DNA of 56,380 nucleotides. Source: Dehalococcoidia bacterium (lineage in GTDB: Bacteria; Chloroflexota; Dehalococcoidia; DSTF01; JACRBR01). The stretch lies in assembly GCA_041494685.1 (NCBI GenBank), contig JBGQBE010000016.1, positions 1-56,380 of the forward strand, given 5' to 3'. The notes beneath the pieces are model-generated. The model saw nothing but the letters and a program-made list of their open reading frames with translations, had not been told where the DNA came from and made no database searches. The position numbers were made by a program, and so were the translations under genes. This document shows, piece after piece, positions 3,125 to 48,241 of the stretch; the stretch's first letter is position 1; every line of letters starts with the position of its first letter.

Positions 3125-3745
3125 ATGGACGACGCTATGACATTCGCCGCGATCGTGCTGGCCGGCGGCCGCAGCACCCGCCTCGGCAGGGACAAGGCGT
3201 CCGAACCGCTGCTCGGACGGCCGCTGCTGCAGCACGTCATCGATCGCGTTGCGCCGCTCGTCGGCGAACTGATCGTCGTGCGCGCCCCGGCGCAGCAGCT
3301 ACCGGCAGTCGAAGCTCACCTGCCGATACAGGTCGCGGACGACGCCTATCCCGGCAGCGGTCCGCTTGGCGGCATCTTCACGGGCCTGACCGCCGCCCGC
3401 GCCGGGCGCTGCATCGCCGTCGCCTGCGACATGCCGCTGCTCTCCCAGCCCCTCCTGCGCGAGCTGCTCCGCCGCTCCGCCGCGTGTGACGTCGTCATGC
3501 CGGTACTCGAATACCCGGAGCCGCTGCACGCGGTATACGCGCGCTCGTGCGCGGGCGCCATGCGGGCGCGGCTGGACGCGGGTCAGCTCAAGATCACCGG
3601 CTTCCTCGGCGCTGTGAACGTGTGCTACGTCCGCGAGCCGGAATGCCGCGCGATCGACCCCGACCTGCGCTCATTCGTCAACGCCAACACCGAAGAAGAG
3701 CTTGCCCGCGCGGCGAAGCTGCTCCAGGCGGATGACGGCGGCTGA
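3125..3745 (+). CDS. mobA: Molybdenum cofactor guanylyltransferase
   Basis: LAGGRSTRLGRDKA, GPLGGI, ACDMP, EPLHAVY and NANTEEE motifs; this is the C-terminal 206 aa of ORF 1328..3745 (alternative ATG at 3137). Confidence 0.93.
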   Translation: MDDAMTFAAIVLAGGRSTRLGRDKASEPLLGRPLLQHVIDRVAPLVGELIVVRAPAQQLPAVEAHLPIQVADDAYPGSGPLGGIFTGLTAARAGRCIAVACDMPLLSQPLLRELLRRSAACDVVMPVLEYPEPLHAVYARSCAGAMRARLDAGQLKITGFLGAVNVCYVREPECRAIDPDLRSFVNANTEEELARAAKLLQADDGG

Positions 3746-3777
3746 CCGCCAACAGCTAACGGCTAACCGCTAACCGC
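3741..3777. repeat. Imperfect 7-bp tandem repeat (GCTAACC-like) between convergent mobA and moaA
   Basis: gctgacc gccaaca gctaacg gctaacc gctaacc read directly. Confidence 0.7.
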
Positions 3778-3780
3778 TCT

Positions 3781-4848
3781 CTAACCGCCGATGTATGACA
3801 TCTCGATTCTTGGGCCGGCAACGGTGGCGCCGGTGCGCTGTTCGCTGTACCGGTCGTCACGGGCGGCCCAGACGCCGCGGATGGCGTCGATGATCGCGGC
3901 GTCGCTGCCGCCGCGGACCAGCGACCGCAGGTCGGTGCCCTCCGTCGCGAAGAGGCATGTGTAGAGGCGCCCGTCGGGCGAGAGCCGCGCGCGCGTGCAG
4001 GCGCCGCAGAATGGCTGCGTGACCGACGTGATGACGCCAACCTCCGGCTCCACGACGCTCCCACCAGCGGCCTGCGGCGTGACATACCGCCAGCGCTGCG
4101 CCACTTCGCCGGGATAGTTCGCCGGCAGCCGCTCGAGCGGCATCTCTGCGCTGATCAGGCGCACGATCTCCGCGCCGGACACGACTTCGTCGCGCCGCCA
4201 TTCGTTGCTCTGCCCGACATCCATGTACTCGATGAAGCGCACGATGTGCCCCGTGCCGCGGAAGTGGCGCGCGAGGTCGAGCACGGTGTGGTCGTTGACC
4301 CCGCGCCGGACGACCACGTTGACCTTCAGCGGCGTCAGTCCCGCCTTCGCCGCTGCCTCGATGCCTTCGAGCACGCGCGCCGCCGGGAAGTCGACGTCGT
4401 TCATCGCGCGGAACACGGCGTCGTCGAGCGAATCGAGGCTCACCGTGACCCGTTGCAGCCCGGCGTCCGCGAGCGCCTGCGCCTGCCCGGCCAGCAGCGA
4501 ACCGTTGGTCGTCAGCGCGATCTCGATGCCGGGGATCCGGGCGAGCATCGCGATCAGCGACGACAGGTCCTTCCGCAGCAGCGGCTCGCCGCCCGTCAGA
4601 CGGATCTTGCGGACGCCCTGCGACACGAAGATGCGCGCGAGCCGCTCGATCTCTTCGAACGACAGAAGGTCGCCGCGGCCCAGGAACGTGGAGCCGGCGC
4701 CGAACACCTCGCGCGGCATGCAGTACCGGCACCGGAAGTTGCAGCGGTCTGTGACGGAGATCCGCAGGTCGAGCAGGGCGCGCCCGAAGTGGTCGCGCGG
4801 AACGCCTGCGTCGGATCGGTCGCCGCACCTGGAAGTGTCGAGTATCAC
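3781..4848 (-). CDS. moaA: GTP 3',8-cyclase (radical SAM)
   Basis: [36 protein letters not shown]...C and C-terminal MSYIGG. Confidence 0.97.
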
Positions 4849-4864
4849 GGACTCGCCTCCCCGC

Positions 4865-6595
4865 TTACACCACCTGGCGCTCGCCGTAGTACGGCATCGA
4901 TACCGTACCGGGCTTGCTCTCCGTACCGCCTCGCGCGACCATCGCCATCGTCACCGGGGCGATCACGCTGGGGTCCGTCTGGACGTTGATGCACGCTGGA
5001 CGGCGCGACTCGAACGCGCGCGCGATCGCCGGTCCGAGATCATCCGCCATCTCGACCTGCTCCGCGTAACAGCCGAATCCCGCGGCCGCCAGGTCGTAGC
5101 GCACCACGCCAAGGTCTGTCACGACCGTGTGGTCCTTGCCGTACATCAGCTCCTGCCCGTGCTTGGACATGCCCCACTGCTGGTCGTTGTTCACCACGAC
5201 CACGATCGGAAGGCGGTGGCGCACCATCGTGTCGAACTCCGCGAAGTTGAGGCCGACGGAGCCGTCGCCCGTCAGGCACACGACGCGGCTCTCCGGATGC
5301 GCGATCTGGGCGGCAATGGCGAACGGCAGCCCCGTGCCCAGACAGCCCAGGTAGCCGTGCGACAGCCAGTGCCCCGGCGCACGGATTGTGGACGCCATCT
5401 CGAGCCAGAACGAGGTCTCGCCTCCGTCACCGACGAGGACGTCGCTCTCGCGGTCCATCATGCGGCCGATGTCGCGCGCGAGCCGGTACGGATGGATCGG
5501 CGCGGCGCACGCCGCCGGCCCGGAGAACACGGCGTCCATCGCGCCGCGGCTGCCGCGCAGCGTCGCCACCCAGGCGCCGCGGTCGGGCCAGGCGCGCGTC
5601 CCGGCTCCGGCGTTCAGCGCATGCAGCGTCGCGCAGCAATCGGCGACGATCCCCGTCTGCACGTCGCGGTTGCGGCCGATCTCCTCTCCCTCGACATCGA
5701 CCTGGATGAGGTGCGCCGTATCCGGAATGAACGAGTTCTGCGCGCCGCCGGTGAACAGCCCCAGCCGCGCGCCGAGCATCAGCACGACATCGGGTCCGCC
5801 CGCCTGCCGCGTTCCCATGAGCGACATGAATCCCCCGCCCGAGAGCGGGTGATCTTCCGGCAGGCACGCTCGCCCCCGGCCGTTCGCCAGCACCGGGACG
5901 CCCGTGCGCTCCGCGAACGCGCGCAGTTCATCGCTCGCGCCCGAAAACCAGACGCCGCCGCCCGCCATGATCACGGGCCGCTCCGCCGCCGCGAGCCGGT
6001 CGAGTATCTCCCGCACCGTCGCGTCCTCCGGCGCGGGACGCTCGGCCGGCCGGTACGCCGCGGGAAGCTTCACGCGTGACTCGTCGATGCGGGCGAACAG
6101 GACGTCCGCGGGCAGTTCGAGGAACACCGGGCCAGGGCGCCCGCTCGTCGCGATGCGCAACGCCTGCGCGACATAGTCCGGCAGGCGCTGCAGGTGCGTG
6201 ACCGTCGTGGACCACTTCGTCACCGGCTTCATCAGGTCGACTTGGCTGAAGCCGCCCTGGAGCGGCAGCCGCTCGTCGTCGATGAGCGGGCTCCGTCCGC
6301 CGATGACCAGCATGGGCACGCAGTCGAGATACGCGTTCGCGACGGCGGTGACGACGTCGGTGACGCCGGGCCCGGCGGTGACGATCGCGACGCCGACGCG
6401 CCCCGTCGTGCGAGCCCAGCCGTCGGCGGCATGCCCCGCCGCCTGCTCGTGCCTCGTGTCCACCAGCCGCAGCCCATGCCGGACAGCGGCCTGGTAGATC
6501 GCGTCGAGATGTCCGCCGTGCAACGTGAAGACGCAATCGACGCCCTCCGCAACCAGCATGCGGACGAGGATCTCACCACCGTCAATGTCGCTCAC
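4865..6595 (-). CDS. Thiamine diphosphate-dependent enzyme, benzaldehyde lyase / 2-hydroxyacyl-CoA lyase-like
   Basis: [18 protein letters not shown] and GDGSVG...NN ThDP motif; GTG start at 6595 with GGGGGT RBS. Confidence 0.88.
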
Positions 6596-6654
6596 GTCGC
6601 ACCCCCGTCGCTCACGGCAACCGAATGTGTGGGGCAACAGTAACTCCCGGTACA

Positions 6655-6702
6655 GGGCCATTCCGGTGTCGATCGGCCCCGACTCCGGGGCCAAATGGCC
6701 CT
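6655..6702. promoter_or_regulatory. Tandem DosR/OsdR-like operator boxes
   Basis: GGTGTCGATCGGCCCC (6665-6680) and GGGGCCAAATGGCCCT (6687-6702); 6655-6679 reverse complement matches 47119-47143 at 23/25. Confidence 0.65.
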
Positions 6703-6769
6703 GCGAGTCCGGAGCGCGTTCGCGCGATGATGCTTGAAACCGAACGGGCGCAGGACAGGAGGCACGGCG

Positions 6770-7141
6770 ATGGTGCGGCAGTCAGAAGAGACCCTGGTCA
6801 CGATGACGGAGCGGGCGCAGACGAAGATGATGAGCCTGATGCGCGACCGCGGACTCGAACAACCGGAGTTGCGTGTGTTCGTCGCCGGCGGCGGCTGTTC
6901 CGGCTACCAGTACGGCATGTCGATCGCGGAGGGACGTCAGCAGAACGACATCATCGTCAGCCAGGGCGACCTGACGCTGCTCATCGACCCCGACAGCGCC
7001 CCGCTCGTGCGCGGTGCAGAGATCGACTACATCGACGACGTCATGCAGTCGGGATTCGCGATCAACAACCCGAACGCGCCGGCATCGGGCGGCTGCTCCT
7101 GCTCCGCGAACGGCGGCGAAGGCCCGCCAACCTGCTGCTAG
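6770..7141 (+). CDS. A-type Fe-S carrier (HesB/IscA/ErpA family)
   Basis: LRVFVAGGGCSGYQY, GAEIDY, F.INNPNA...CSC; AGGAGG RBS before ATG 6770. Confidence 0.92.
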   Translation: MVRQSEETLVTMTERAQTKMMSLMRDRGLEQPELRVFVAGGGCSGYQYGMSIAEGRQQNDIIVSQGDLTLLIDPDSAPLVRGAEIDYIDDVMQSGFAINNPNAPASGGCSCSANGGEGPPTCC

Positions 7142-7158
7142 GGAGCGAGGCCGACACG

Positions 7159-8082
7159 GTACACCGAGAAGACGTCACGTTCATCAGCGGCGGCGAGCCT
7201 ATCGCCGCCTGGTTCTATCACGCGCCGAGTGATGAACGGGCCCCGTGCGTCGTGGTGGCGCACGGCTTCGCGGGCGTGAAGGAAGCGCGGCTGGACGCGT
7301 TCGCGGAGCGCTTCGCGGCCGCCGGCATGGCGTGCCTCGTGTTCGATTACCGCCACTTCGGCGGAAGCGGCGGCGAGCCGCGGCAGCTCGTGGACATCAA
7401 GCACCAACGCGAAGACTGGCGAGCGGCGCTGCAATACGCACGTTCGCGCCCCACCGTCGACGCGCAGGCGATCGGCTTGTGGGGGACGTCGTTCGGCGGT
7501 GGCCACGTACTCGAACTCGCCGCGCGCGATCCGGAGATCAAAGCCGCCGTGCTCCATCTCCCGCTCGTCGACGCGCTGGCGACGGGCCGGCACGAAGGCT
7601 TCATCCCGACGGCGAAGCTCGTGTGGTGCGGCTTCCGCGACCTGTTCCGGGCACTCACCCGGCGGCCGCCGTACTTCATCCCCGTCGTCGCCCCGCCGGG
7701 CTCCCTCGCCTTCATGAGCACGCCCGAGGCGCAGCCGGGGTACTTCGCGATCGTGACGGACGCGCCCACCTGGAGGAACGAGGTCGCCGCCCGCATCGTG
7801 ATCGAGATGGCGCTCTTCCGCCCGATCGCCAGCGCTGAGCGGGCGCGCTGCCCGCTGCTGTTCGTCGTGGGCGAGAAGGACTCGATTACGCCGACCGACG
7901 TCACGCTCAAGGCGGCGCGCGACGCGCCGAACGCGCACGTGATCTCCCTTCCGGGCGGCCACTTCGACGCCTACCTGGGCGAGCAGTTCGAACGGGCGGT
8001 CAGCACCGAAGCCGCATTCTTCGCGGAGCACCTGCTGGGCGCGGCAGCGCGGCCGGAAGCCGGCAGCACAGCAGCAATCTAG
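7159..8082 (+). CDS. Alpha/beta hydrolase (start codon uncertain)
   Basis: AHGF, FDYRHFGGSGG, GTSFGG nucleophile elbow, GEKD and GGHF; the apparent N-terminus starts at a GTA codon. Confidence 0.82.
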   Translation, partial: VHREDVTFISGGEPIAAWFYHAPSDERAPCVVVAHGFAGVKEARLDAFAERFAAAGMACLVFDYRHFGGSGGEPRQLVDIKHQREDWRAALQYARSRPTVDAQAIGLWGTSFGGGHVLELAARDPEIKAAVLHLPLVDALATGRHEGFIPTAKLVWCGFRDLFRALTRRPPYFIPVVAPPGSLAFMSTPEAQPGYFAIVTDAPTWRNEVAARIVIEMALFRPIASAERARCPLLFVVGEKDSITPTDVTLKAARDAPNAHVISLPGGHFDAYLGEQFERAVSTEAAFFAEHLLGAAARPEAGSTAAI

Positions 8083-8116: not shown

Positions 8117-8941
8117 TTACGCTTCCCTGATCTCGAACAGCCACGCCGCCAGGGCCACGGGGACGACGATCCACGCGGCCAGCGCGACGCTGAGGATTGC
8201 GGTCGCGCCGCCGGTGCCGGCGCGCTCCATCACGTACGAGCCGAACGGGCCGAGGATCTGCAGGTCGGGCTCGAGATGGATGATCGCGAGCACGCGCACG
8301 ATCTCGACCGGGTTGGCCAGCAACGCCAGCATGAGTCCGCCTCCCCCGAGCGAGGTGGCCGAGACCATGCCGATGAGCAGCAGGTCGAACACGAACACGA
8401 ACACGAACCAGATCATCAGCGCGAAGCCGAGTGCCTGCACGCGCGTGCCCGAGATCACTGACGCGACCAGACCCAGGCCGGTCATCACACAGACGAGCGC
8501 AAGCACCAGGACGATGAGCAGGAGGTACGTGCCGACATCAAGCGTGGAGGCGAAGAAGGCGATGAAGACGCCCGCCGCGCCGAACCCCGCCACCGTCGCC
8601 AGCGCGATCGACGCGCTCAGGCCGGCGAACTTGCCGGCGAGCAGCTCCCAGCGGTCCAGCGGTTGCGACAGCAGGTACGTCAGCGCGCCACGGTCGCGCT
8701 CGCCCGCGATCGCTCCGGCGCCGAGCGACAGCGCCGCCAGTGGCGCGAGGAGCAGGCAGAGGTTGAGGACGCTGGCCGTCGTACGGCTGAAGTTCTCGAA
8801 GCCGACGCTGCCGAGGTTCCGCTCTCCCAGGTACGACAGCGCGAGCGCGAGCACCGTGAAGAGCGCGGCATAGAGGATCAGCCACGAGCTGTTGACGGCG
8901 TCGCGCAGCTCCTTGCGGGCGACGGCGAGCACCACGCTCAC
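8117..8941 (-). CDS. nosY: Copper ABC transporter permease for N2O reductase maturation
   Basis: ABC-2 permease (AGERDRGALTYLLSQP, LANPVE) at the end of the nos operon; GTGA overlap with nosF. Confidence 0.88.
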   Translation of the reverse strand: MSVVLAVARKELRDAVNSSWLILYAALFTVLALALSYLGERNLGSVGFENFSRTTASVLNLCLLLAPLAALSLGAGAIAGERDRGALTYLLSQPLDRWELLAGKFAGLSASIALATVAGFGAAGVFIAFFASTLDVGTYLLLIVLVLALVCVMTGLGLVASVISGTRVQALGFALMIWFVFVFVFDLLLIGMVSATSLGGGGLMLALLANPVEIVRVLAIIHLEPDLQILGPFGSYVMERAGTGGATAILSVALAAWIVVPVALAAWLFEIREA

Positions 8942-9828
8942 GGCTGCACCTGCCCCTCGTCCCCACGCGCCTGCGCCGTCGCCAGCAGGATCTCCTCCCA
9001 GCGAAGCTCGGCCTTCTGGACGTTCTCGGGGCCGACGCCCGCGGCTCGCAGCGCCTCGATGAACGCCGCCGGCGCGTTGCCGTTGAGGTTGACCACGTAG
9101 CGGCTGCCGTGCGCGCGCTGCGCAAGGTCGTCGAGTGAGCCGTCGAACGCCAGGCGTCCCTCGTGCAGGATCAGCGCGCGGTCCGCGACCTCGTCGAGGT
9201 GATCGAGGAAGTGCGTCGAGAGGATCACCGTCTTCCCCTGGTCGCGGAGCCGTACGATCAGTTCCTGCAGGCCACGGCGGCTCTCGACGTCGAGGCTCGC
9301 CGTCGGCTCGTCGAGCAGCAGCAACGGCGGGTCCGCGAGCAGGGCGGCCGCCAGCGCCAGCCGCTGCCGCATGCCTCCGGAGAGGTGGCCGACCTTCGTC
9401 GCCGTTTGCGGCGCGAGGTTCACGAGTTCGAGCAGCTCAAGCACCCGCCCCTTCGCGACGCCCTTGATCTCGGCAAGGAACGCGAGCGCCTGGGCGCAGG
9501 TGTCGCCCTCGCTCAGCGCGGGCGACTGCGGCACGTAGCCGATGCGGCGGCGCGCGTCTTTGCCGTGGCCGCGCACCGAGATGCCCGCGACCTCTACGGC
9601 GCCGTCAAATCCGACGACGCCCAGGATGCACTTGAGCGTCGTCGTCTTCCCCGCGCCGTTCGCGCCGAGCAGCGCGACGACGCTGCCGGCCCGCACGTCG
9701 AATGTCACGTCGTCCAGCACTCGCGTGCGGCCGTACCGCTTGCTGAGGCCGGCGACGCGAAGGATGGATGCTGTCCCGTCCTGCGCCACGCTGGTGCACC
9801 CTTCGTTATCCCGTCGGAGCAGCGCCAT
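8938..9828 (-). CDS. nosF: ABC transporter ATPase
   Basis: GANGAGKTT, LSGGMRQR and LLLDEPT motifs; lies between nosD and nosY (alternative GTG start at 9789). Confidence 0.88.
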   Translation of the reverse strand: MALLRRDNEGCTSVAQDGTASILRVAGLSKRYGRTRVLDDVTFDVRAGSVVALLGANGAGKTTTLKCILGVVGFDGAVEVAGISVRGHGKDARRRIGYVPQSPALSEGDTCAQALAFLAEIKGVAKGRVLELLELVNLAPQTATKVGHLSGGMRQRLALAAALLADPPLLLLDEPTASLDVESRRGLQELIVRLRDQGKTVILSTHFLDHLDEVADRALILHEGRLAFDGSLDDLAQRAHGSRYVVNLNGNAPAAFIEALRAAGVGPENVQKAELRWEEILLATAQARGDEGQVQP

Positions 9829-11331
9829 CTATGCGGGCGCCTCGCCCGGGCGCCGGCCGCGCTTCCCCACTCCCAGCATACGCCGAAGGAGGCGGCCCGC
9901 GTCAACGGACGCGAAGCGGATGGCCGCGAAGGACGACAGTACGACGAGCAGCACGCTCACTCCCAGCAGGCGGACATTGATCCCGCCGCCATGCGACAGC
10001 GCGAGGCCCGGAGGCGGCTCCATGAGCGGATTGCTGTCCTCGATCACCGGGTTGTACCTGTAGACGGGGAACATGTCGGTCGCCGCGTCGATGGCCTGCT
10101 GGGCGGGCGTAAACTGGAACAGCCGCAGCATCTCCTGGTTACCCAGACGGCCCGCGAATGGCGGGCGCGGCTGGTACGGCTGGTCGCCCACGCCGTCGCC
10201 GTTCGCGTCAAAGCCGCGATAGTCGCTCCAGTAATTGCCGCGACCGGCGCTCGTCCACACGGCCGCCTTCAATAGCTGGGGCGTACCGCCTGCCGGCTGT
10301 GCGCCCGCGGGCGTGGCGCCATCGTGGCTGGACAGCGCGCTGGCCAGTTCGCCGCTGAGCGCCTTGACCTGCACTGTGTTGTCGATCATCGCGTTCTCGA
10401 CGAAGGTGATCGGGGCGTTCGAGAACAGCCCCAATCCGGTGTCGTTGAGCGCGAAGGTATTGCGGCGGAAGATCGCGGTCGCGCCGGCCTGCTGCGGCGT
10501 GCCATCGACGGTCATGCCGAACTTGTTGCGCAGGATGCGGTTGCCTTCGACCCAGATATTGTTGTCGTCCTTGATCAGCATGCCGGCGCCGCTCGCACCA
10601 CTGCGGTTGTTGGAGAACTCGTTGTCCTTGACGATCAGATCGTTCGAATACATGAGCACGGCGCCGGCGAGGTTTCCGCGAAACGTGTTGCTGATCACCT
10701 TGTTGTCGCTCGCGTACATGAAGTGCAGCGCGTAGCGGCTGTCGGTGACCGTGTTCTTGCCGAGACCGTTCCGGTCGGAGTACTCCATGTGGATGCCGTC
10801 GGCGGCGTGGCGGATCGTATTCCCGTACAGCGTCGAGCCGGTCACTTCCCACAGATACACGCCGTGCCCGCGCCGCTCGATCGGCGTATCGCCCCCGGTG
10901 TCGATGACGTTGCCGTCGATCAGGTCGTCGGCGCTGTCCGTGATGTGCACGCCGAAATGCGCATCCGCCAGGTGATTGGCGCGGATCGTCACCCGTTTCG
11001 CGCCATCGACCTTGATCGCCGCCGGCTCCTGCGACACGTTCTTGCTGCTGCCGCGGATCGTGAACCCTGAGATCACAACGTCATCGGCGGAGATAGTCAC
11101 GACGTCGCCCTGACCGCCTCCATCGATGACAGGCGAGTTGCGCCCGATCAACGAGATCGACTTGTTGATCACAATCGATTCCCGGAACACGCCGCCGTCC
11201 ACGATGACGATGTCCTCGGGAGCCGCTCGATCGACGCGCTGCTGCAGCGACAGCCCCGCGTCTTGCGCCCGCACCGGCGTGGCGAAGTGCATCGCCGCCC
11301 CGCAAAGCAGGAGGACGAGGAGCAGCCTCAC
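9829..11331 (-). CDS. nosD: N2O reductase maturation protein (beta-helix) with C-terminal membrane anchor
   Basis: Signal peptide, RRGHGVYLW, SRYALHFMY and GNYWSDYRGFDANGDGVGDQPY; GTG 11331 overlaps the upstream stop. Confidence 0.93.
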   Translation of the reverse strand: MRLLLVLLLCGAAMHFATPVRAQDAGLSLQQRVDRAAPEDIVIVDGGVFRESIVINKSISLIGRNSPVIDGGGQGDVVTISADDVVISGFTIRGSSKNVSQEPAAIKVDGAKRVTIRANHLADAHFGVHITDSADDLIDGNVIDTGGDTPIERRGHGVYLWEVTGSTLYGNTIRHAADGIHMEYSDRNGLGKNTVTDSRYALHFMYASDNKVISNTFRGNLAGAVLMYSNDLIVKDNEFSNNRSGASGAGMLIKDDNNIWVEGNRILRNKFGMTVDGTPQQAGATAIFRRNTFALNDTGLGLFSNAPITFVENAMIDNTVQVKALSGELASALSSHDGATPAGAQPAGGTPQLLKAAVWTSAGRGNYWSDYRGFDANGDGVGDQPYQPRPPFAGRLGNQEMLRLFQFTPAQQAIDAATDMFPVYRYNPVIEDSNPLMEPPPGLALSHGGGINVRLLGVSVLLVVLSSFAAIRFASVDAGRLLRRMLGVGKRGRRPGEAPA

Positions 11332-12008
11332 GCCACGCTCCGTCGCTGGCCGGCGTCGCCCCTGGCGGGGGCGCCGGTCCCGGCGCCACGCACTGTTGCG
11401 CGCGCGCGGCGGCGCTGCCACCAGCCGACAGCGAGCGGGACGACCGTGATCTCGATCGCCGCGGCGAGCATCAGGTAGAACCCAAGCTCGAAGCCGGTGT
11501 TCGAATGGAAGTTCCACACCTTCGTCGTTCCCATCACCTTCGGCGTGAAGGAGCCGGTGTTCAGCGGTGCCTCCGGATTCATCGTGTGTCCGTAATGGTA
11601 CAGCCAGAACTGAAGGTCCACTACGAAGAACACCGGCATCGTCCAGAATCCGAGTATAAGCAGTGCTCGCAGCCACCGGCGCTTCCAGGAGACGAACGAC
11701 CCAATCAGCGTACCGGCGATGAGCGCCAGCACACCCGGGATGAAGAGGCTCATCTCGGCCACCTTTTCGATCGGCTTCATCCCGATGTAGTGGTTCAGGC
11801 CGTTGATCTCGCGGACGTCGTCGTAGTACGTGTTGGGGTCGCCGACGAACTTGTAGCCATAGGCTCTCATGACCAGCCCGGCGGGGTACTGCGGCGCCAC
11901 CAACTCCATCCGCCACAGAGGCACGAACAGTGCTCCGAGCAGGAGCCCGCAGGCGATGACGGAGGCGATGAGCCACGACTTCTCGGGGCGTCCAAACAAT
12001 CCGCTCAT
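11328..12008 (-). CDS. nosB: Clade II nos membrane protein
   Basis: PLW...APQYP.GL, EINGLNHYIGMKPI and WLYHYGH motifs, about four hydrophobic segments, directly downstream of nosZ; GGAGG RBS. Confidence 0.85.
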   Translation of the reverse strand: MSGLFGRPEKSWLIASVIACGLLLGALFVPLWRMELVAPQYPAGLVMRAYGYKFVGDPNTYYDDVREINGLNHYIGMKPIEKVAEMSLFIPGVLALIAGTLIGSFVSWKRRWLRALLILGFWTMPVFFVVDLQFWLYHYGHTMNPEAPLNTGSFTPKVMGTTKVWNFHSNTGFELGFYLMLAAAIEITVVPLAVGWWQRRRARATVRGAGTGAPARGDAGQRRSVA

Positions 12009-12100
12009 CGCATCATCCTCCTTTCCCGGAACGGGCGCTCCCGCGGCGATCAGCCGCGGGAGCGCCACAATCTTCACAACCCTCCGTCGACTCGTATCGG

Positions 12101-14146: not shown

Positions 14147-14242
14147 GGCCACAGACCTCCCCTACTAGCCCGATAGGGCTACGCGCTCATTGCGGCATGA
14201 TCGCCATTCTCCTGCAACAGCTGTAAGAGCCTGACGCCCCTC

Positions 14243-14489: not shown

Positions 14490-15029
14490 ATGCAGAGTTC
14501 TCTCAAACGATGGGCCTGGCTGGGACTCGGCGTCGTCGGCCTCGCCGCGGCGGCGAATGCGGCCTGCGGGCAGGCTGGTACGTATGAGAAGACCCCCACA
14601 CCCGGTGCGCCACCCCCAGCGGCGACGAAACCGGCGACTACGCCCGCCGCCACGGCGGCGGCAACCGGGGCTGCCGCGACGCCGTCGGCCGCCTCGCCCA
14701 CGCAGGCTGCCGCAACCACGGCCACGGCCGGTGGCGGCGGCGAGGCCACAACGCTGACACTCGTCGCGAAGAACACCCTCTTCGACAAGAGCGAGTTGAA
14801 GGCGAAGGCCGGCGCGGTGACGATCGAAGTCGATAACCAGGATGGCGGTATCCCGCACAACCTCCATGTCTACAGGGGGAAGGACAATACGGGGGAAGAT
14901 ATGGGAAAGACGGAGATCGCAGCCGGTCCCGTAAAGCAGACGCTCAAGCTTCAACTGACGGCTGGCGAGTACTTCTTCGTCTGCGAGGTCCACCCTCCGA
15001 CGATGTTCGGCAAACTCGAAGTCGAGTAG
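14490..15029 (+). CDS. Exported (probable lipoprotein) type-1 copper cupredoxin with Ala/Thr/Pro linker
   Basis: Signal peptide ending AAC; PHN...YFFVCEVHPPTMFG supplies His/Cys/His/Met ligands. Confidence 0.88.
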   Translation: MQSSLKRWAWLGLGVVGLAAAANAACGQAGTYEKTPTPGAPPPAATKPATTPAATAAATGAAATPSAASPTQAAATTATAGGGGEATTLTLVAKNTLFDKSELKAKAGAVTIEVDNQDGGIPHNLHVYRGKDNTGEDMGKTEIAAGPVKQTLKLQLTAGEYFFVCEVHPPTMFGKLEVE

Positions 15030-17877: not shown

Positions 17878-17879
17878 TC

Positions 17880-18347: not shown

Positions 18348-18387
18348 AAACGGAGAAGAGGCACGACGGTGTGCCTCTTCTCCGTTT
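18348..18387. terminator. Bidirectional intrinsic terminator-like hairpin
   Basis: Perfect 17-bp stem AAACGGAGAAGAGGCAC-gacggt-GTGCCTCTTCTCCGTTT between convergent genes. Confidence 0.85.
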
Positions 18388-37499: not shown

Positions 37500-38578
37500 T
37501 GGCAGAACGTGCGCCGACGCCGCAACGTCAGCTGGCGATGGTCTTCGACCTGAACAAGTGCCTCGGCTGCCAGACCTGCTCGATCGCGTGCAAGACGCTC
37601 TGGACGGACCAGGAAGGCATGGAGCACATGTGGTGGAACGTGGTGAACACGCTCCCCGGTGCGGGCTCGCCGCGGAACTGGATGCAGATCGCCGGCGGGT
37701 TCGACCAGGACGGCAAGTCGCGGCCGAGCCAGCTGCCGACGAGCGAAGACTTCGGCGTCGCCTGGGACTACAACTACGACGAAGTCTGGAACGGCGGCCC
37801 CAATACCGTGCTGACCAAGGACCGCGAGACGAACTGGGGCATGAACTGGGACGAAGACCAGGGCGAAGGCGAGTGGCCGAACAACTACTTCTTCTACCTG
37901 CCGCGCATCTGCATGCACTGCACGCGCCCCGCCTGTCTGGAAGCATGCCCTCGCACCGCGATCTACAAGCGCGAGGACAACGGCACGGTGCTGCTGGACG
38001 AGGAGCGGTGCCACGGCTACCGCTTCTGCGCCGAGGCGTGCCCCTACAAGCGCATCTATTTCAACCCGAAGCGCCGCCTGTCGCAGAAGTGCGTGCTCTG
38101 TTTCGCACGCGTCGAACAAGGCGTCGCGCCCGCGTGCATGCGCCAGTGCCCTGGCCGCATCCGCTTCTTCGGCTACCTCGATGACGAGAAGAGCGCGGTC
38201 TACAAGCTGGTCAAGAAGTGGAAGGTCGCGATCCGCCTGCACCCGGAGTTCGGCACGGAGCCGAACCTGTACTACGTGCCGCCGCTTGCGCCGCCGCGTC
38301 TCCTGCCGAACGGCGACGTCGACGAAGCCAACCCCCGCATCCCGAAGGACTACATGGAGTGGCTGTTCGGCAGCGCCGTGTGGCCCGCGCTGGACACGCT
38401 GAAGGCCGAGATCGAGAAGCGGCAGAAGGGTGAGCCGTCCGAGTTGATGGACACGCTCATCGCTTTCGAGCACAAGGACATGTTCGGCGGGTTCTCGAAG
38501 GATCCGGGCACGCTGGACCGCAAGCCCCGTCACGTCGATACGGGCCAGCTGTTCTCACCAGGGACGCAACCAACGTAG
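37499..38578 (+). CDS. Beta subunit 2 (EbdB/NarH-like Fe-S protein)
   Basis: MVFDLNKCLGCQTCSIAC, CMHCTRPACLEACP, CHGYRFCAEACPY and CVLC; TGATG overlap. Confidence 0.94.
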   Translation: MAERAPTPQRQLAMVFDLNKCLGCQTCSIACKTLWTDQEGMEHMWWNVVNTLPGAGSPRNWMQIAGGFDQDGKSRPSQLPTSEDFGVAWDYNYDEVWNGGPNTVLTKDRETNWGMNWDEDQGEGEWPNNYFFYLPRICMHCTRPACLEACPRTAIYKREDNGTVLLDEERCHGYRFCAEACPYKRIYFNPKRRLSQKCVLCFARVEQGVAPACMRQCPGRIRFFGYLDDEKSAVYKLVKKWKVAIRLHPEFGTEPNLYYVPPLAPPRLLPNGDVDEANPRIPKDYMEWLFGSAVWPALDTLKAEIEKRQKGEPSELMDTLIAFEHKDMFGGFSKDPGTLDRKPRHVDTGQLFSPGTQPT

Positions 38579-42504: not shown

Positions 42505-43938
42505 GTGCCGTTGAACAGGGAGGATTCGAGACAGAGCGACACGGGGCGGTCCGGGTCCGCACTCGCGGACCACGACCTTCCGATTAACCGCGCATTGCGC
42601 CAGCTCCGCCGCATGACGATGGTCGTGCCGTTGCTGTTCATCGCGGTGCTGGAGGTCGCCGTTCACCTGGTGATCGGCGACCGGATCCCGCGTGTGACCG
42701 CGGTGCTGCTGATCTTCGTCCTCGTTGCCGGCGGCTCGGCCGTGTTCTCGCTGCTCGTCTTCCACTTCCTGAAGCGCATCCAGGATCGCCTCATCCAACG
42801 GAACCGCCAGATTGCCGCCGTCCACAGCGCCGGCCTGTCGCTGGCGTCCGAGATGACGCTCGAACCCCTGTTGCGCAAGTTCGTCGGCCTGGCGTGCGAG
42901 ATCACCAACGCGAAGTACGGGGCACTCGGCATCACCGGCGCCGATGGGCGACTGGAGCGCCTGATCACCTCCGGCCTCAGCGATGACGAACGCACCAACA
43001 TCGGCCCAACTCCGGACGGACACGGGCTCCTCGGTCTGATGATCGGCGAGGGCGCCACCCTCCGGATGAAGGATCTCACGCAGGATCCGCGCTCTGTGGG
43101 CTTCCCGCCCCACCACCCGTCCATGCGCACGCTCCTCGGGGTGCCGGTCGTATACAAGGACAACATCGTCGGCCACCTGTACCTGGGCGATAAGCAGGGC
43201 GCGGACGAATTCAGCCGCGAAGACGAGGAGATGGTGCAACTGTTCGCCGCGCAGGCGGCGGTGTCGATCGAGGCAGCCCGCCTGCTGGAGCGGTCGCAAG
43301 ACCTCGCCATCCTGGAGGAGCGCGAGCGGATCGGCATGGATCTGCATGACGGCGTGATCCAGACGCTGTACGGCGTCGGACTGAACCTGGAAGACTGCGC
43401 CGCGTCCGTGGCCACCGAACCGGACGCCGTGGCGGATCGGCTCGACAAGACGGTCAACGACCTCAATCAGGTCATCAAGAACATCCGCGGCTACATCTTC
43501 CATCTGCGGCCTGCGGAGTATGGCGCCGGCACGCTGACCGATGCGCTGCGTGACCTCGCGGAAGAGGTGCACGTGAACTCGCTCATCGACGTGGAGGTCG
43601 ACACGGATGACGTCGACACGTCGCAGCTGCCCAAGCCCGTGGCCGAGAACCTCTTCCACATCGCGCAGGAGGCGCTGGCCAACGTGTCGAAGCACTCCCG
43701 CGCGACGCGAGCCTGGATCCGGCTGCGCTCAGACGGCAACATCCTCGCGCTGGCGATCCGCGACAACGGCCGTGGCTTCGAACCCGCGTCGTCGGCCGGC
43801 GTCGGGCATCGCGGACTCGGCAACATCGCCGACCGCGCCCGGGCCATCGGCGGCGCCCTGGAAATGACGAGCACAACCGGCATCGGCACGACCATTTGTG
43901 TCGATGTTCCGCTTGAGCGGGAGCAGTCCCATGTCTGA
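42505..43938 (+). CDS. Membrane GAF-domain histidine kinase, DosS/DevS-like
   Basis: Two TM helices; GAF segment GLLG...DPRSVGFPPHHPSMRTLLGVP; ERERIGMDLHD, QEALANV and DNGRGF. Confidence 0.9.
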   Translation: MPLNREDSRQSDTGRSGSALADHDLPINRALRQLRRMTMVVPLLFIAVLEVAVHLVIGDRIPRVTAVLLIFVLVAGGSAVFSLLVFHFLKRIQDRLIQRNRQIAAVHSAGLSLASEMTLEPLLRKFVGLACEITNAKYGALGITGADGRLERLITSGLSDDERTNIGPTPDGHGLLGLMIGEGATLRMKDLTQDPRSVGFPPHHPSMRTLLGVPVVYKDNIVGHLYLGDKQGADEFSREDEEMVQLFAAQAAVSIEAARLLERSQDLAILEERERIGMDLHDGVIQTLYGVGLNLEDCAASVATEPDAVADRLDKTVNDLNQVIKNIRGYIFHLRPAEYGAGTLTDALRDLAEEVHVNSLIDVEVDTDDVDTSQLPKPVAENLFHIAQEALANVSKHSRATRAWIRLRSDGNILALAIRDNGRGFEPASSAGVGHRGLGNIADRARAIGGALEMTSTTGIGTTICVDVPLEREQSHV

Positions 43939-44581
43939 CCAGATCCGCGTCCTGATCGTCGATGAGCACGAGATCGTCCGCGAGGGCTTGCGGGCCGTAC
44001 TGGGGCGCCGGCCGGGCTTCTGCGTGGTCGGCGAGGCCTCCTCCATCGCCGACGCCGTCGAAGAGGTCACCCGCACCACTCCCGATGTCGTCCTGATGGA
44101 TGTGCATCTCGGAGATGCGTCCGGTGTCGACGCCTGCCGCTCCATCCACGAGCACTCACCGCAGGTCAAGATCATCATGCTCACCCCCCACGCGGATGAC
44201 GATCTGGTCATGGACTCGATCCTTGCCGGCGCGTCCGGCTTCATCCTCCAGCGCGTGAGCGGTGACGCGCTCCTGGACGCCATCGCCAGCGTTGCCGCGG
44301 GCGGCTTCCTGCTGGACCCCGTCGTCACGTCGCACGTGCTCGACCGGCTCCGCGCGGTCGGCACCCGGCGAGAAGATCAAATGGATCCCCTGTCGTCACA
44401 GGAACGGCGCGTACTGGCGCTGATCGCGGAAGGGAAGACAAATCGGGAGATCGCCGCCGCGATCGGCCTGAGCGAGAAGACGGTCAAGAACTACGTCAGC
44501 AGCATCCTCAACAAGCTCAGAATGCACCGCCGGTCGGAGGCCGCGGCGTTCGTCGCGCGACAGACAGCTCGCGACGAGTGA
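43931..44581 (+). CDS. NarL/LuxR response regulator, DosR/DevR-like
   Basis: Receiver domain (LMD) and HTH GKTNREIA...SEKTVKNYVS.IL.KL.M.RR. Confidence 0.92.
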   Translation: MSDQIRVLIVDEHEIVREGLRAVLGRRPGFCVVGEASSIADAVEEVTRTTPDVVLMDVHLGDASGVDACRSIHEHSPQVKIIMLTPHADDDLVMDSILAGASGFILQRVSGDALLDAIASVAAGGFLLDPVVTSHVLDRLRAVGTRREDQMDPLSSQERRVLALIAEGKTNREIAAAIGLSEKTVKNYVSSILNKLRMHRRSEAAAFVARQTARDE

Positions 44582-44641
44582 CCGCCGCTGGCTGGCCATC
44601 GCGGCGGCGTAGGCAGCCGTGCCGTCACCTCGCCCGCTCGT

Positions 44642-44735
44642 CTGCTGCCTCCCGTCTGTTGTCGCCGGCCCTTTGCTGTTTGCCGTTTGCTGTTTGCTGT
44701 CAGCAATCTGCGGTCTGCCGTCCGCTGCCTGCCGT
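44642..44735. repeat. Imperfect 7-bp tandem repeat (YTGCYGT) between convergent genes
   Basis: ttgctgt ttgccgt ttgctgt ttgctgt cagcaat ctgcggt ctgccgt ccgctgc ctgccgt, with looser units upstream. Confidence 0.78.
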
Positions 44736-44746: not shown

Positions 44747-45229
44747 TCAGATGGGATCGAGCAGCCGGATCCGGTAGACGCAGTTCTGCGCGCCCGTCGC
44801 CACCGACTCGACGAGCGACACTTCCGCGCGCCGGCGGGCGTGCCGCTCGATCAGCAACCGGACCCACGTCTCGCCGCACAGGCACAGCTTCGGATCGAGG
44901 CGTATCACCTGCTGCCGGACGTGCGGACACACGCACTCGCCCTCGTGCAACTCCGTCCACAGCAACTCGTCGTCACCGGCGGATTCGACACGCACGCGGC
45001 TCGGACCGGAGATCTTCATCCGTTCGAGAAACGTGTCGAAGTCAAGGTCCGGCGGGATATCGGCGAGTGCGACGAACGCATGCACGCAAGCCTCTGCCTG
45101 CGTGTCCATCACGCGCCGCAGCGGCTCACCCTCCAGCCCGTAGATGCCCTCGTACAGCCCGCCGACGAGGTCGTCGCGGAAGGTCCGCATGAGCTGCTCC
45201 ACCCAGTCGCCGCCGCCGCTCGCGCTCAT
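44747..45229 (-). CDS. Cys-rich V4R-like small protein
   Basis: CVCP...CLC...VESVATGAQNCVYRI pattern; ATGA overlap with the upstream gene. Confidence 0.7.
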   Translation of the reverse strand: MSASGGGDWVEQLMRTFRDDLVGGLYEGIYGLEGEPLRRVMDTQAEACVHAFVALADIPPDLDFDTFLERMKISGPSRVRVESAGDDELLWTELHEGECVCPHVRQQVIRLDPKLCLCGETWVRLLIERHARRRAEVSLVESVATGAQNCVYRIRLLDPI

Positions 45230-45531
45230 GGCGTCGCCGCCGTGTGTGATGGCTCGCGCATCAAGATCCCTCCCGGCATCATGTGCCAGACCCGCGTGAC
45301 CTCCGGCAGGACGCTTGCGATATCGTCCTCGGTGCAGGCCGCCGGGCGCGCGACCTCAAACTGCGCCTTCGCTTGCTGGTTCGCCGCCTGGATCCCGTCG
45401 CTCAACGCCGTTGACAGCAGCGTGCGGTCGCAACTGCCGCCGCCGCCCGGCTGCGCCCAGACGACCACCCCGACGGCCACCGCCACCACCAGCGCGACGG
45501 CGCCAATGGCGGGTGCCAGCCACTTCGTCAT
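45226..45531 (-). CDS. Small exported hypothetical protein
   Basis: GGAGG RBS, N-terminal hydrophobic helix, two Cys and a C-terminal HMMPGGILM...H segment. Confidence 0.7.
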   Translation of the reverse strand: MTKWLAPAIGAVALVVAVAVGVVVWAQPGGGGSCDRTLLSTALSDGIQAANQQAKAQFEVARPAACTEDDIASVLPEVTRVWHMMPGGILMREPSHTAATP

Positions 45532-45727: not shown

Positions 45728-47023
45728 ATGTCAACCGACGAGGCAAGGGTCGTGGTGCCCGCCGTCCGGCGCTCACCGGTGCGCGCACTCCGCCACCGCG
45801 ACTACTCCCTGATGTGGCTCGGCATCCTCTTCGGCAGCGCCCTCGTCCCCATGCAGTTCGTCACACAGATCCTCTTCCTCTCCGAGCACAGCGGCGAAAG
45901 TTCACGCCTCGTGCTCTCCGGCCTCCTTGGCGCCGCGCGCGGTGCCGCCATGCTCACGTTCAGCCTGTTCGGCGGCGCGCTCGCCGATCGCTTCGACCGC
46001 CGCCGTCTGCTCATGGTGTCGCAGTCGCTCGGCCTCCTGACCGGCGCCGCCATCGCGGCCGTCATGCTCACGACGCCAGGCGGCCAGACGCTTACGCTCT
46101 CGCTGTTCATCGCGCTCATCTTCGTGGGCGCGGGGCTCGGTTCGATCGACAGCCCGACCCGCCTCTCGATGGTCCCGGAGCTCGTCGGGCGCGAGGACCT
46201 CCCCAACGCCATCGCGCTCGACGCCGTCGCGTTCCAGCTCGGGTTTCCGCTGGGCCTGCCGCTCACCGGCGTGCTCATCGACCACATCGGGTTCGGATGG
46301 ACCTACGTGGTCACGCTGGGTGCCTACGCGTCGCTCATCATCACCGTGGCGCTCATGAAGTACCGGCCCCCGCGCCGGACGGGCTACCTCCGCGCGTCGC
46401 TGCTCGCCGATATCCGCTTCGGGGTCTCGTACGCCCGCAACCGACCCGCGGTGCTGTGGATCATCGCCATCTCCTTCGCGATCAGCGGCCTGGGGCTGCC
46501 CGTAGTGGCGAATCTCGGGCCCGTCTGGACGAGTCGCGTGCTCGGGCTCTCCCCCACCGGCGTCGGCCTTCTCGCCATGACGTGGGGCGTCGGCTCCATG
46601 GTGGCCTCGCTCGTCATGACCAACGTCGGGCACTTCAAGGCCAAGGGATATCTCGTGATCTGCGCGGCCGCCGGGTTCGCCGCGTGCGTCGTGCTGTTCG
46701 GCTACTCGCGGATCATCCCGCTCAGCGCCGTCATCAACCTTGGCCTCGGCAGCATGCTCACGGTCTCAGGCGTCGCATCGACGTCGCTCGTGCAGCGCAT
46801 GGTCCACAACGATGTCCAGGGCCGCGTGATGAGCCTGTTCATGATGAGCCAGGGAGTCTCTCAACTGCTGACCTTGCCGATCGGCGGCTTTGCCCAATGG
46901 GCGACGCTCCAACTCACGATGCCGCTCATGGGCTGGATCAGCCTGGCGACGGTCGCGGTCATAGCGCTGACGCAACCGGCGCTCCGCAACGCCGGACGCC
47001 AGGGCCCGGCGGCCGACCCGTGA
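45728..47023 (+). CDS. MFS transporter
   Basis: GGALADRFDRRRLL motif A, 12 hydrophobic segments and QGRVMS. Confidence 0.92.
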   Translation: MSTDEARVVVPAVRRSPVRALRHRDYSLMWLGILFGSALVPMQFVTQILFLSEHSGESSRLVLSGLLGAARGAAMLTFSLFGGALADRFDRRRLLMVSQSLGLLTGAAIAAVMLTTPGGQTLTLSLFIALIFVGAGLGSIDSPTRLSMVPELVGREDLPNAIALDAVAFQLGFPLGLPLTGVLIDHIGFGWTYVVTLGAYASLIITVALMKYRPPRRTGYLRASLLADIRFGVSYARNRPAVLWIIAISFAISGLGLPVVANLGPVWTSRVLGLSPTGVGLLAMTWGVGSMVASLVMTNVGHFKAKGYLVICAAAGFAACVVLFGYSRIIPLSAVINLGLGSMLTVSGVASTSLVQRMVHNDVQGRVMSLFMMSQGVSQLLTLPIGGFAQWATLQLTMPLMGWISLATVAVIALTQPALRNAGRQGPAADP

Positions 47024-47094
47024 CGCCGGCCGCGACGGACGGCGAATCCGCACTCGATACACGCTCATCCCCTGCTGGCTGCCACCGCCACCCT

Positions 47095-47161
47095 CGGGCC
47101 ATAAGACCCCACGACTCCGGGCCGATCGACACCAGAACGGCCCCTCCGGACGGTCTACAGT
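47095..47161 (+). promoter_or_regulatory. DosR/OsdR-like boxes plus putative -10 (TACAGT)
   Basis: CGGGCCATAAGACCCC and CGGGCCGATCGACACC; same layout as the 6637-6702 element on the minus strand. Confidence 0.62.
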
Positions 47162-47209
47162 TGCGGTGCGAGTGTAGGGCCGGTCAGCCGTGGGGCTGAT
47201 CGCAGCGAA

Positions 47210-48241
47210 GTGAGGCCGCCGCAAGTGCCAGAAGCATCCCAGTCCGCCACGGGCCATGCCGGGGCTGCCGCACGCAGCGGCGGCCCGGGAATCCGATCCC
47301 TGTCGGCGGCGATCGGCGGCCTCGTACTGTCGTCCGTGCTGCTGCTCGCCTGCGGTACATCGAGCAACACGCACGGGCAAGACGTCCGTCACGTCACCGT
47401 ACCGGCGGCCCTGCTGGCCGGCGATGTTGGAGATCCGCGATGCGATGACGTCCAGCACTTCTGCATCGTCCGCACGCAGGGCAGCGAGTTCATCGCCCTG
47501 TACGCCTACGACACGAACGCCAAGTTCCGCGCCCGCGGCTGCGTGCTCACGTGGGAGCCTGACCGCCGGTTCGTCGATCAGGCGGGCGCCGCGGGCGTAG
47601 GCGCGTTCCACTCGCCTTGTAGCGACGCAGTCTTCGACCGCACGGGGCGCGTCGCCTTCGGAACGGCTCCGCGCGACATGGACCGCTTCCCGCTCAAGAA
47701 AGCCGTCACCGGCGAGACGTGGATCGACGTCTCTCAACTCATCTGCGGCGACGCCCAGAGCGGCGCAGCCCAGTCCTGCGACCTGGCGCCAGCCCTGGCA
47801 GTCGCACAGGCCACATCAGCGCCGGGTCAGACGACGTCCGACATCACGCCCATCTCCACCTGGACCGCCACCGCGCCGGCGACCGCGACCGCCGCGGGCT
47901 CCACGCCGACACCGGCAGCCGCCGCCACGGCGGCCGCGCCCGGCGGCGCCGGCGTGGCGACGACGCTCACGCTCGTCGCGAAGAACACGCTCTTCGACAA
48001 GAGCGAGTTGCAGGCGAAGCCCGGCGCGGTCACGATCGACATGGACAACCAGGATGCCGGCATCCCGCACAACATCCACGTCTACCAGGGGAACGACAAC
48101 ACGGGGAAGGACATGGGCAAGACGGAGTTTGAACCCGGCCCGGTGAAGCAGACGCTCACGCTGAACCTCACGGCTGGCGAGTACTACTTCGTCTGCGAGG
48201 TCCATCCCGCGACGATGGCCGGCAAGCTGGTGGTCCGGTAG
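47210..48241 (+). CDS. Lipoprotein: degenerate Rieske-like domain, linker, type-1 copper cupredoxin
   Basis: LLAC lipobox; GCVLTW...FHSPCSDAVFD..G....GTAPRDMDRF; C-terminal PHN...YYFVCEVHPATM. Start codon uncertain. Confidence 0.8.
   Translation: MRPPQVPEASQSATGHAGAAARSGGPGIRSLSAAIGGLVLSSVLLLACGTSSNTHGQDVRHVTVPAALLAGDVGDPRCDDVQHFCIVRTQGSEFIALYAYDTNAKFRARGCVLTWEPDRRFVDQAGAAGVGAFHSPCSDAVFDRTGRVAFGTAPRDMDRFPLKKAVTGETWIDVSQLICGDAQSGAAQSCDLAPALAVAQATSAPGQTTSDITPISTWTATAPATATAAGSTPTPAAAATAAAPGGAGVATTLTLVAKNTLFDKSELQAKPGAVTIDMDNQDAGIPHNIHVYQGNDNTGKDMGKTEFEPGPVKQTLTLNLTAGEYYFVCEVHPATMAGKLVVR

Follow-up and report, generated by a model that had tools for sequence, protein, structure and literature searches.

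Does a bank of putative molybdenum hydroxylases that lies beside genes for nitrous oxide (N2O) respiration deliver its electrons to N2O reductase? This question is raised by the entire 56,380-base contig C16 (JBGQBE010000016.1; hereafter, the window) of a 3.29 Mb genome (68% G+C, estimated to be 97.6% complete), which encodes five catalytic (alpha) subunits of the type II dimethyl sulfoxide (DMSO) reductase family together with a nos cluster. The reading that we favor, and consider probable, is that the window carries two separable modules: a partly cytoplasmic battery of hydroxylases related to ethylbenzene dehydrogenase (EBDH) and steroid C25 dehydrogenase (S25DH), and an ordinary clade II nos cluster with its own copper donor. 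Genes in the window were called by G+C content at codon positions, and 40 open reading frames (ORFs) were then scanned against Pfam and NCBIfam. Relatives, denoted by G numbers, comprised 61 genomes from the same order of Chloroflexota, with G000 being the window's own genome. The nearest homologs carry the names of Dehalococcoidia or Chloroflexota metagenome-assembled genomes (MAGs), which bears out the affiliation of the host with the Chloroflexota that an earlier note on this DNA had suggested. The inventory in that note was likewise recovered: five alpha, two beta, and two gamma subunits, one chaperone, molybdenum cofactor (Moco) and Fe-S genes, two cupredoxins, and nosZBDFY (nosB by position).

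The alpha subunits of the window (937-984 amino acids, aa) each comprise Molybdopterin and Molydop_binding domains. They are given here with their scores on TIGR03479 (DMSO_red_II_alp; cut-off 984.75 bits) and on the EbdA equivalog model NF042978 (cut-off 2000 bits):

15064-17877, plus strand: A1, EBDH-like alpha without a twin-arginine translocation (Tat) signal; TIGR03479 893 bits, NF042978 805 bits
18420-21338, minus strand: A2, Tat-less EBDH-like alpha; TIGR03479 839 bits, NF042978 741 bits
24318-27272, minus strand: A3, Tat-less alpha of a separate clade; TIGR03479 930 bits, NF042978 625 bits
27394-30264, plus strand: A4, Tat-less EBDH-like alpha; TIGR03479 875 bits, NF042978 821 bits
32208-35123, plus strand: A5, Tat-bearing EBDH-like alpha; TIGR03479 1014 bits, NF042978 882 bits

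TIGR03479 was the best family for all five (839-1014 bits), with only A5 exceeding its cut-off. The listed start of A2 is followed 34 codons later by an internal ATG. The genome encodes nine alphas in total, with three of the others on contig C15 (including A7) and one (A9) on C30. Pairwise identities among the nine are 46-59%, with the exception of A3 (36-38%). When compared to solved structures, A4 scored 764.3 bits with EbdA (2ivf_A) and 453.9 bits with 4ydd_A, which we take to be perchlorate reductase, the structure table naming it only as a type II enzyme. The corresponding scores of A3 were 575.8 and 540.7 bits.

Phylogenetic reconstruction was conducted on 37 rows and 988 columns under LG+C20. 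References comprised representatives of 50%-identity clusters found with A5, labeled by NCBIfam scores and source names (the latter mostly generic for the 20 cluster representatives), as well as ClrA of Alicycliphilus denitrificans BC and NarG of Haloferax mediterranei, both taken from annotated plasmids. A1, A2, A4, A5, and A6-A9 fell within a 14-row, EBDH-like clade (support 100/98) that includes P0126, whose score on the EbdA model (1235 bits) far exceeds those of the other representatives, and P0129, which derives from a Sterolibacterium MAG. A separate 6-row clade (support 95/89) comprised ClrA and the DdhA-named P0154, and pNarG and NarG branched further out, beyond that clade. A3 belonged to a neighboring 5-row clade of its own (support 97/96), which joins the EBDH-like clade, not the ClrA group, in a 27-row clade (support 99/98). 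Two quick trees agreed with this topology. The earlier description of the alphas as EBDH/S25DH-like, as opposed to oxyanion reductases, therefore holds for A1, A2, A4, and A5 and does not extend to A3. The ClrA/DdhA-named clade leaves out all nine.

Alignment to EbdA reveals that the Asp at D223 (the Mo ligand) and the Lys at K450 are kept in all nine genome alphas. The FS0 motif, H-x3-C-x4-C, is present in seven of the nine; A3 has Cys in place of His, and the A9 row, as aligned, is without the N-terminal stretch. At the N-terminus of A3 (27080-27130 of the window), this protein and five orthologs (L014, L017, L019, L021, and L022) read GTCNQADCIAAC. Other representatives of the same clade read GTH...NC..AC; the FS0 His ligand is thus Cys in A3 and these five orthologs. 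PMC8840923 calls this His ligand apparently fully conserved in subfamily II and the Asp Mo ligand common to the entire subfamily. As a separate observation, two alpha-type matches in G025 lie inside one open frame of 1972 aa (C168, 57967-63564), which may reflect either two catalytic subunits fused in tandem or a missed stop.

With respect to location, A5 alone among the nine genome alphas has a twin-arginine motif (NRRTFLK) followed by a hydrophobic stretch; it scored 21.6 bits on TAT_signal (cut-off 22.7) and matched TIGR03479 from profile position 1. On visual inspection and by a simple rule, A1, A2, A3, A4, and the four alphas elsewhere in the genome have no Tat signal, and the same rule detected a Tat-like signal in none of the 120 closest homologs of A4. 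Across the 61 relatives, 18 listed matches, one in each of 18 genomes, start at profile position 1 (the signal region), and the remaining listed matches all start at position 11 or beyond. Because A1-A4 lack a signal, they should act in the cytoplasm, and A5 would be the only alpha exported by Tat. A3 and its five orthologs have a remnant xLRRLx motif with no hydrophobic stretch, as does NarG, in which a motif of this type is likewise a remnant.

The partner subunits available to these alphas are few. Those encoded in the window, together with their chaperone, are:

22516-23169, plus strand: G1, gamma subunit (EB_dh) with both conserved heme-ligand residues kept
23166-23840, plus strand: chaperone of the NarJ/EbdD type (Nitrate_red_del and TIGR03482)
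30261-30905, plus strand: G2, gamma subunit (EB_dh) without both conserved heme-ligand residues; 89.5 bits to the EBDH structure 2IVF
30919-32058, plus strand: B1, Fe-S beta subunit (TIGR03478 488.7 bits, cut-off 480.7)
37499-38578, plus strand: B2, second Fe-S beta subunit (Fer4_11), 55% identical to B1, with GGAGG before its ATG

Genome-wide, there are nine alphas, three betas (one outside the window), two gammas, and one chaperone, the last being the sole copy as indicated by a single tblastn match. Given that both gammas and the chaperone are encoded here, the window is the hub of the system, in which nine catalytic subunits, including the five molybdenum-bis(pyranopterin guanine dinucleotide) subunits of the window, would draw on a common set of three betas, two gammas, and a single chaperone. 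Neither G1 nor G2 has a signal, and the solved EbdC chain aligns with G2 from residue 1; since EbdC is also without a signal of its own, the signal-less gammas say nothing about location.

The two gammas differ at the columns of the EbdC heme ligands, which we take to be Met108 and Lys201 and whose roles were reportedly established by Kloer and colleagues in 2006. Met and Lys occupy these columns in all seven G1-type gammas, as well as in ClrC and a haloarchaeal gamma, and Leu or Phe together with Arg occupy them in all five G2-type gammas (Leu and Arg in G2 itself). G2 is translationally coupled to A4 and is followed by B1. Taken with the replacement of both ligand residues, this arrangement suggests that the A4-G2-B1 complex may be without heme b, with G2 being a gamma that appears to have lost its ligands.

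The second module comprises the nos genes and a neighboring cupredoxin gene, with a related cupredoxin encoded further along the window:

8117-8941, minus strand: NosY (ABC2_membrane_2), with orthologs 67-80% identical in relatives' nos loci
8938-9828, minus strand: NosF (ABC_tran and synteny)
9829-11333, minus strand: NosD (TIGR04247 345.7 bits, cut-off 300), with a GTG start at 11331 and a signal-like N-terminus
11328-12077, minus strand: membrane protein at the nosB position, matched by no family model
12101-14152, minus strand: NosZ of clade II, Sec-dependent, a lipoprotein (TIGR04246 771.6 bits, cut-off 625)
14490-15029, plus strand: Cup2, lipoprotein type-1 cupredoxin (Cupredoxin_1 and Copper-bind)
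47210-48241, plus strand: Cup1, lipoprotein with a C-terminal type-1 cupredoxin domain (Cupredoxin_1 and Copper-bind; lipobox)

NosZ scored 404.6 bits on the Tat-type model TIGR04244, and its N-terminus carries a lipobox-like AASVGC. Orthologs of the gene at 11328-12077 (minus strand), which we presume from its position to be nosB, are 59-67% identical and lie directly after nosZ in all 10 of the relatives' loci. Other clade II clusters include the cytochrome genes nosG, nosH, and nosC; none of these, nor nosL, was seen among the window ORFs scanned. The C-terminal domain of Cup1 is 79% identical to Cup2. A lipobox, a Pro/Ala/Thr linker, and an H..C..H..M pattern were found in all eight Cup2 orthologs read, and the same pattern, the predicted copper ligands, is present in Cup1. 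The cup2 gene is divergent from nosZ in seven of the 10 relatives' loci, including that of G010, in which no alpha was found. This, together with the lipoprotein nature of both Cup2 and NosZ, suggests that Cup2 is the likely electron donor of the nos cluster, which in its nosZ-B-D-F-Y content would otherwise be ordinary.

Several further genes are needed to describe how the hydroxylase island is arranged among relatives:

4865-6694, minus strand: thiamine pyrophosphate (TPP) enzyme resembling acetolactate synthase or 2-hydroxyacyl-CoA lyase (three TPP_enzyme domains; under every NCBIfam cut-off)
6734-7141, plus strand: IscA-like Fe-S carrier (Fe-S_biosyn)
21416-22522, plus strand: MobB-FmdE fusion (MobB and FmdE domains)
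23857-24312, minus strand: orfX, a small protein downstream of A3, with orthologs 70-78% identical in G004 and G024
35120-36193, plus strand: CN-hydrolase superfamily protein (PF00795)
36180-37499, plus strand: NCS1/CytX-like permease (TIGR02358 103.8 bits, under the cut-off of 309.85; synteny)

The core of the island, consisting of A2, MobB-FmdE-G1-chaperone, orfX-A3, and A4-G2-B1-A5-CN-hydrolase-NCS1-B2, recurs in whole or in part in G004, G034, G009, G025, and G024; several genera within the order retain the island. Within it, MobB-FmdE adjoins G1 in G024, G034, G025, and G046. The CN-hydrolase and NCS1 permease genes are translationally coupled between A5 and B2 and keep this position in G034 and G009; the G004 contig ends inside the CN-hydrolase gene, itself kept after A5, and in G046 the CN-hydrolase gene occurs in another order. 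The TPP enzyme is syntenic with IscA in G032 and G034.

The arrangement of nos genes relative to alphas is less constant. An order in which nosZ is divergent from cup2 and cup2 is followed by A1 was identified in G000, G024, and G032. No alpha was detected within the fetched nos flanks of G025, G027, G029, G009, and G046, and in G026, which is a single contig, the nearest listed alpha is >200 kb from nosZ (G008, G022, and G033 were left out of this count because their contigs end too soon). Conserved adjacency of nos and alphas is thus not borne out, being seen in three genomes and absent in six. Alphas were identified in 23 of the 61 genomes (usually 5-13 matches each, with at least 12 in some) and NosZ in 14; 12 genomes had both, 11 had alphas only, and two had NosZ only. 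G004 and G034 both have the hydroxylase core, and no NosZ was found in either; in G034 the order is TPP enzyme, IscA, and Cup2 followed by A1, with no nos genes between. The cup2-A1 pair consequently persists without nos.

Several points weigh against the two-module reading. The window alphas fall far under the EbdA equivalog cut-off (625-882 versus 2000 bits) and are, on these scores, relatives of EbdA, not orthologs. His192 of EbdA is kept in none of the nine genome alphas. Curated EbdA, S25dA, CmdA, AhyA, SerA, DdhA, and PcrA are not among the tree rows, and the EBDH label of the 14-row clade derives from P0126, at 1235 bits versus the model cut-off of 2000. Hydroxylase activity of the Tat-less clade is deduced from clade membership alone, and the export signals were judged by inspection and a simple rule. 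For an enzyme that resides in the cytoplasm and depends on a high-potential acceptor, the window offers no obvious partner. Moreover, alphas and NosZ clearly co-occur, with alphas in 12 of 14 NosZ-positive versus 11 of 47 NosZ-negative genomes, a comparison in which relatives are not independent samples, and the cup2-A1 pairing, also present in G024, G032, and G034, hints at a cupredoxin-A1 link that two separable modules do not explain.

These last two points bear on the proposal of the earlier note, namely that the hydroxylases are wired directly to N2O respiration, with electrons passing through blue-copper lipoproteins to NosZ. The gene order on which it draws is real: short contigs from four DNA runs of other sediment samples bridge both the nosZ-cup2 and the cup2-A1 junctions, which argues that the adjacency is no assembly artifact, and A1 starts 34 nt after cup2 in the same orientation. 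A complex containing the Tat-exported A5 could meet a cupredoxin, and the absence of a CxxCH cytochrome c from the window, also stated in that note, was confirmed by a six-frame scan (frames of at least 60 aa), in which the single CxxCH match was on the antisense strand of A1 and no credible frame contained one. However, four of the five alphas are signal-less, whereas Cup1, Cup2, and NosZ, all lipoproteins, are external to the membrane, so that direct electron transfer is conceivable only for A5, and the path as proposed is not sustained. Moreover, as described above, nos lies apart from alphas in six genomes, the hydroxylase core exists in two genomes where NosZ was not found, and Cup2 stays with nosZ in the alpha-less G010. 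Also present in the genome are genes for a heme-copper oxidase, for TatC, and for cytochrome c maturation proteins of the CcsA type, and the oxidase and maturation genes suggest that N2O is not the sole electron sink.

Shared promoter motifs, which the earlier note had reported, do not add to the case for direct wiring. The single notable element in common is an exact 13-mer in the nosZ/cup2 spacer (14368) and the A2/MobB spacer (21365). When up to two mismatches are allowed, it has eight matches versus 4.5 expected, a number reached in five of 100 shuffles. With one mismatch, it is kept at the A2/MobB spacer of two relatives' loci, and it is kept at none of the relatives' nos loci fetched. 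No repeat family was common to the six spacers tested. The 13-mer is thus not above chance with mismatches and is not kept at nos, and the claim of shared motifs was not substantiated. We consider direct wiring of the hydroxylases to NosZ unlikely; any coupling of the two modules would go no further than an indirect link via common regulation or the respiratory chain.

A related possibility, to which we assign a similarly slim chance, is that the cup2-A1 pairing marks a real link, in which blue-copper lipoproteins would collect electrons from a largely cytoplasmic EBDH-type battery via a putative trans-membrane relay, with part of the battery using a heme-less gamma. If true, such a link would let a monoderm Chloroflexota couple O2-free hydroxylation of C-H bonds to the reduction of N2O or O2 with no need for a pool of cytochrome c in the periplasm.

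Complexes of the A4-G2-B1 type might, alternatively, feed no high-potential chain at all, and use a cytoplasmic redox partner or operate in the reductive direction (e.g., dehydroxylation). The signal-less A4 and its 120 closest homologs would fit this possibility, as would the replacement of both heme-ligand residues in all five G2-type gammas and the presence of a gene for a nitroreductase-family flavoprotein next to A7 on C15. However, no partner was identified in the window, and catalytic direction is not readable from sequence. Moreover, the island also encodes G1, which has both of its ligand residues and could act with these alphas as well. This alternative is, in our estimation, quite improbable. 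A final alternative is that the alphas, or a subset of them, reduce oxyanions (as chlorate, perchlorate, selenate, or nitrate reductases do) or other oxidized compounds. It draws on the position of A3 outside the EBDH-like clade, its nearly equal scores to EbdA and 4ydd_A, and the subfamily-wide Asp ligand. We regard it as very unlikely given that eight of the nine genome alphas group away from ClrA, the DdhA-named cluster, pNarG, and NarG, that the clade of A3 has the EBDH-like clade, not the ClrA group, as its closer neighbor, and that the 40 ORFs scanned included neither a chlorite dismutase nor a comparable partner.

Returning to the two-module reading, we infer from clade membership and neighboring genes that A1, A2, A4, and A5 would use water to hydroxylate C-H bonds in hydrophobic substrates of alkyl or isoprenoid type. 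Genes beside the other alphas encode a thiolase, coenzyme A (CoA)-transferase subunits, a short-chain dehydrogenase/reductase, an acyl-CoA dehydrogenase, and a ChsH2-type OB-fold protein. Components of 2-oxoacid dehydrogenases are encoded in the window and beside A9. The genes of beta-oxidation type, a kinase gene, the TPP enzyme, the 2-oxoacid dehydrogenase components, and a weak SCP2 signal in orfX together provide hints of hydrophobic, branched or isoprenoid-like substrates. The kinase, of the EcKL/APH family, is encoded about 7 kb from A9 (18360-19487 of L004, contig C30 of G000), near genes for an acyl-CoA dehydrogenase, an alpha/beta hydrolase, and a ChsH2-type OB protein. With respect to orfX, an atlas score of 0.93 connects it to clusters that partly carry SCP2, and the Pfam SCP2 family matched two of three orthologs (best E 0.0018, which is weak evidence) with no Pfam match to the window copy. 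The AlphaFold model of orfX has a mean predicted local distance difference test (pLDDT) score of 40.8. The protein is possibly SCP2-like.

Further features of the window with recognizable domains are:

3781-4848, minus strand: MoaA, a radical SAM protein of Moco biosynthesis (Radical_SAM and Mob_synth_C)
17880-18302, plus strand: CMD (AhpD-like) family protein (PF02627, E 1.4e-11)
42505-44581, plus strand: GAF-HisKA_3 kinase and NarL-type response regulator (domain scan)

A pair similar to this kinase and response regulator is encoded on C15 near three further alphas. Two candidate genes were rejected on the basis of codon-position G+C and similarity: 7138-8031 (minus strand), in favor of an alpha/beta-hydrolase-like ORF at 7141-8082 on the plus strand, and 37454-38533 (minus strand), in favor of B2 on the plus strand. 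Beyond the island, 52243-56380 contains two lipoprotein-like ORFs with no family match and, after them, the gene of an RHS-repeat protein that is cut off by the end of the contig.

Other observations concern the cupredoxins and nos genes. The N-terminal part of Cup1 (240 aa; 47210-47930) had no family match, and two paralogs (30-32% identical) are encoded on contig C56. A protein of 101 aa encoded at 45226-45531 (minus strand) has a single membrane helix at its N-terminus, two Cys, and an HMMPGG stretch. Orthologs with 33-46% identity immediately follow nosY in G009 and adjoin cup2 in G010 and G029, and the protein may be an accessory of nos whose gene, in this genome, is located 30 kb from the cluster. 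In G026, nosZ (C1, 628747-630754) is split into two parts, one of which contains an in-frame TGA, and may be a pseudogene.

Three spacers have structure of their own. The 149-nt spacer between B1 and A5 contains an 18-nt inverted repeat (32086-32103 and 32168-32185; 94% complementary, 64 nt between the arms) that could be a processing site or an attenuator before the only alpha predicted to be exported. A perfect 17-nt hairpin with a 6-nt loop (18348-18387), located between the convergent CMD-family and A2 genes, looks like a bidirectional terminator. Short repeats resembling GTTTGC and TGCTGT occupy 44640-44720 in the spacer after the response regulator gene.

The enzymes known to hydroxylate unactivated C-H bonds independently of O2 are a small number of periplasmic ones from denitrifying Proteobacteria. 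With nine catalytic subunits in one genome, the enzyme class appears to be expanded in uncultured sediment Chloroflexota. If these are active hydroxylases, the turnover of sterol, isoprenoid, or alkyl carbon in anaerobic or microoxic sediments may involve far more lineages than supposed and another exit for electrons. Our results also guard against reading adjoining N2O reductase genes as part of the hydroxylase machinery.

In the literature searched, which did not extend to subscription journals or supplements, no description was found of a clade with a signal-less, EBDH/S25DH-like set in Chloroflexota, and the only paper containing both 'steroid C25 dehydrogenase' and 'Chloroflexi' draws no link between them. 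The closest known systems include S25DH1-4 and S26DH of Sterolibacterium denitrificans, for which PMC6016249 reports eight alpha paralogs, few beta-gamma pairs, and one chaperone, SdhD. The system described here is alike in having many alphas, few beta-gamma pairs, and one chaperone, and in its gamma-beta gene order. The kinase gene near A9 recalls the 25-hydroxysteroid kinase step that the S. denitrificans pathway employs (PMC8449060). Unlike the system here, in which one of five window alphas and one of nine genome alphas has a signal, the studied S25DH and S26DH were assigned to the periplasm on the basis of their Tat signals (PMC7411048). Further differences are that S25DH and S26DH contain heme b, whereas G2 is without both ligand residues, and that their host is a denitrifying betaproteobacterium, whereas the host here is a Chloroflexota; the tree contained no S25dA sequence.

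EbdABCD of Aromatoleum aromaticum (2IVF) provided the best solved-structure match of A4 (764 bits), A3 (576 bits), and G2 (89.5 bits). The two systems are alike in the Asp Mo ligand, the Lys at K450, the His-Cys-Cys FS0 pattern, a signal-less gamma, and an EbdD-like chaperone. They are unlike in that the alphas here score 625-882 bits on the EbdA model (cut-off 2000) and do not have His192, four of the five window alphas have no Tat signal, one gamma is without heme ligands, and the gene order is alpha-gamma-beta. When compared to clade II nos clusters, the nos genes are alike in having a Sec-type NosZ above its cut-off, NosD, NosF, NosY, and a membrane protein at the nosB position, and unlike in having a lipoprotein cupredoxin divergent from nosZ, as in seven of 10 relatives' loci. 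NarGHJI is alike in being a type II enzyme that faces the cytoplasm and has a NarJ-family chaperone; it is unlike in that NarG falls outside the clade and that, in the window, there is no NarI-type membrane subunit and the gammas are of the EB_dh type. The kind of system is therefore known, both for EBDH/S25DH-type hydroxylases and for clade II nos, and what distinguishes the present variant is the mostly signal-less set, the gamma without heme ligands, and the Chloroflexota host.

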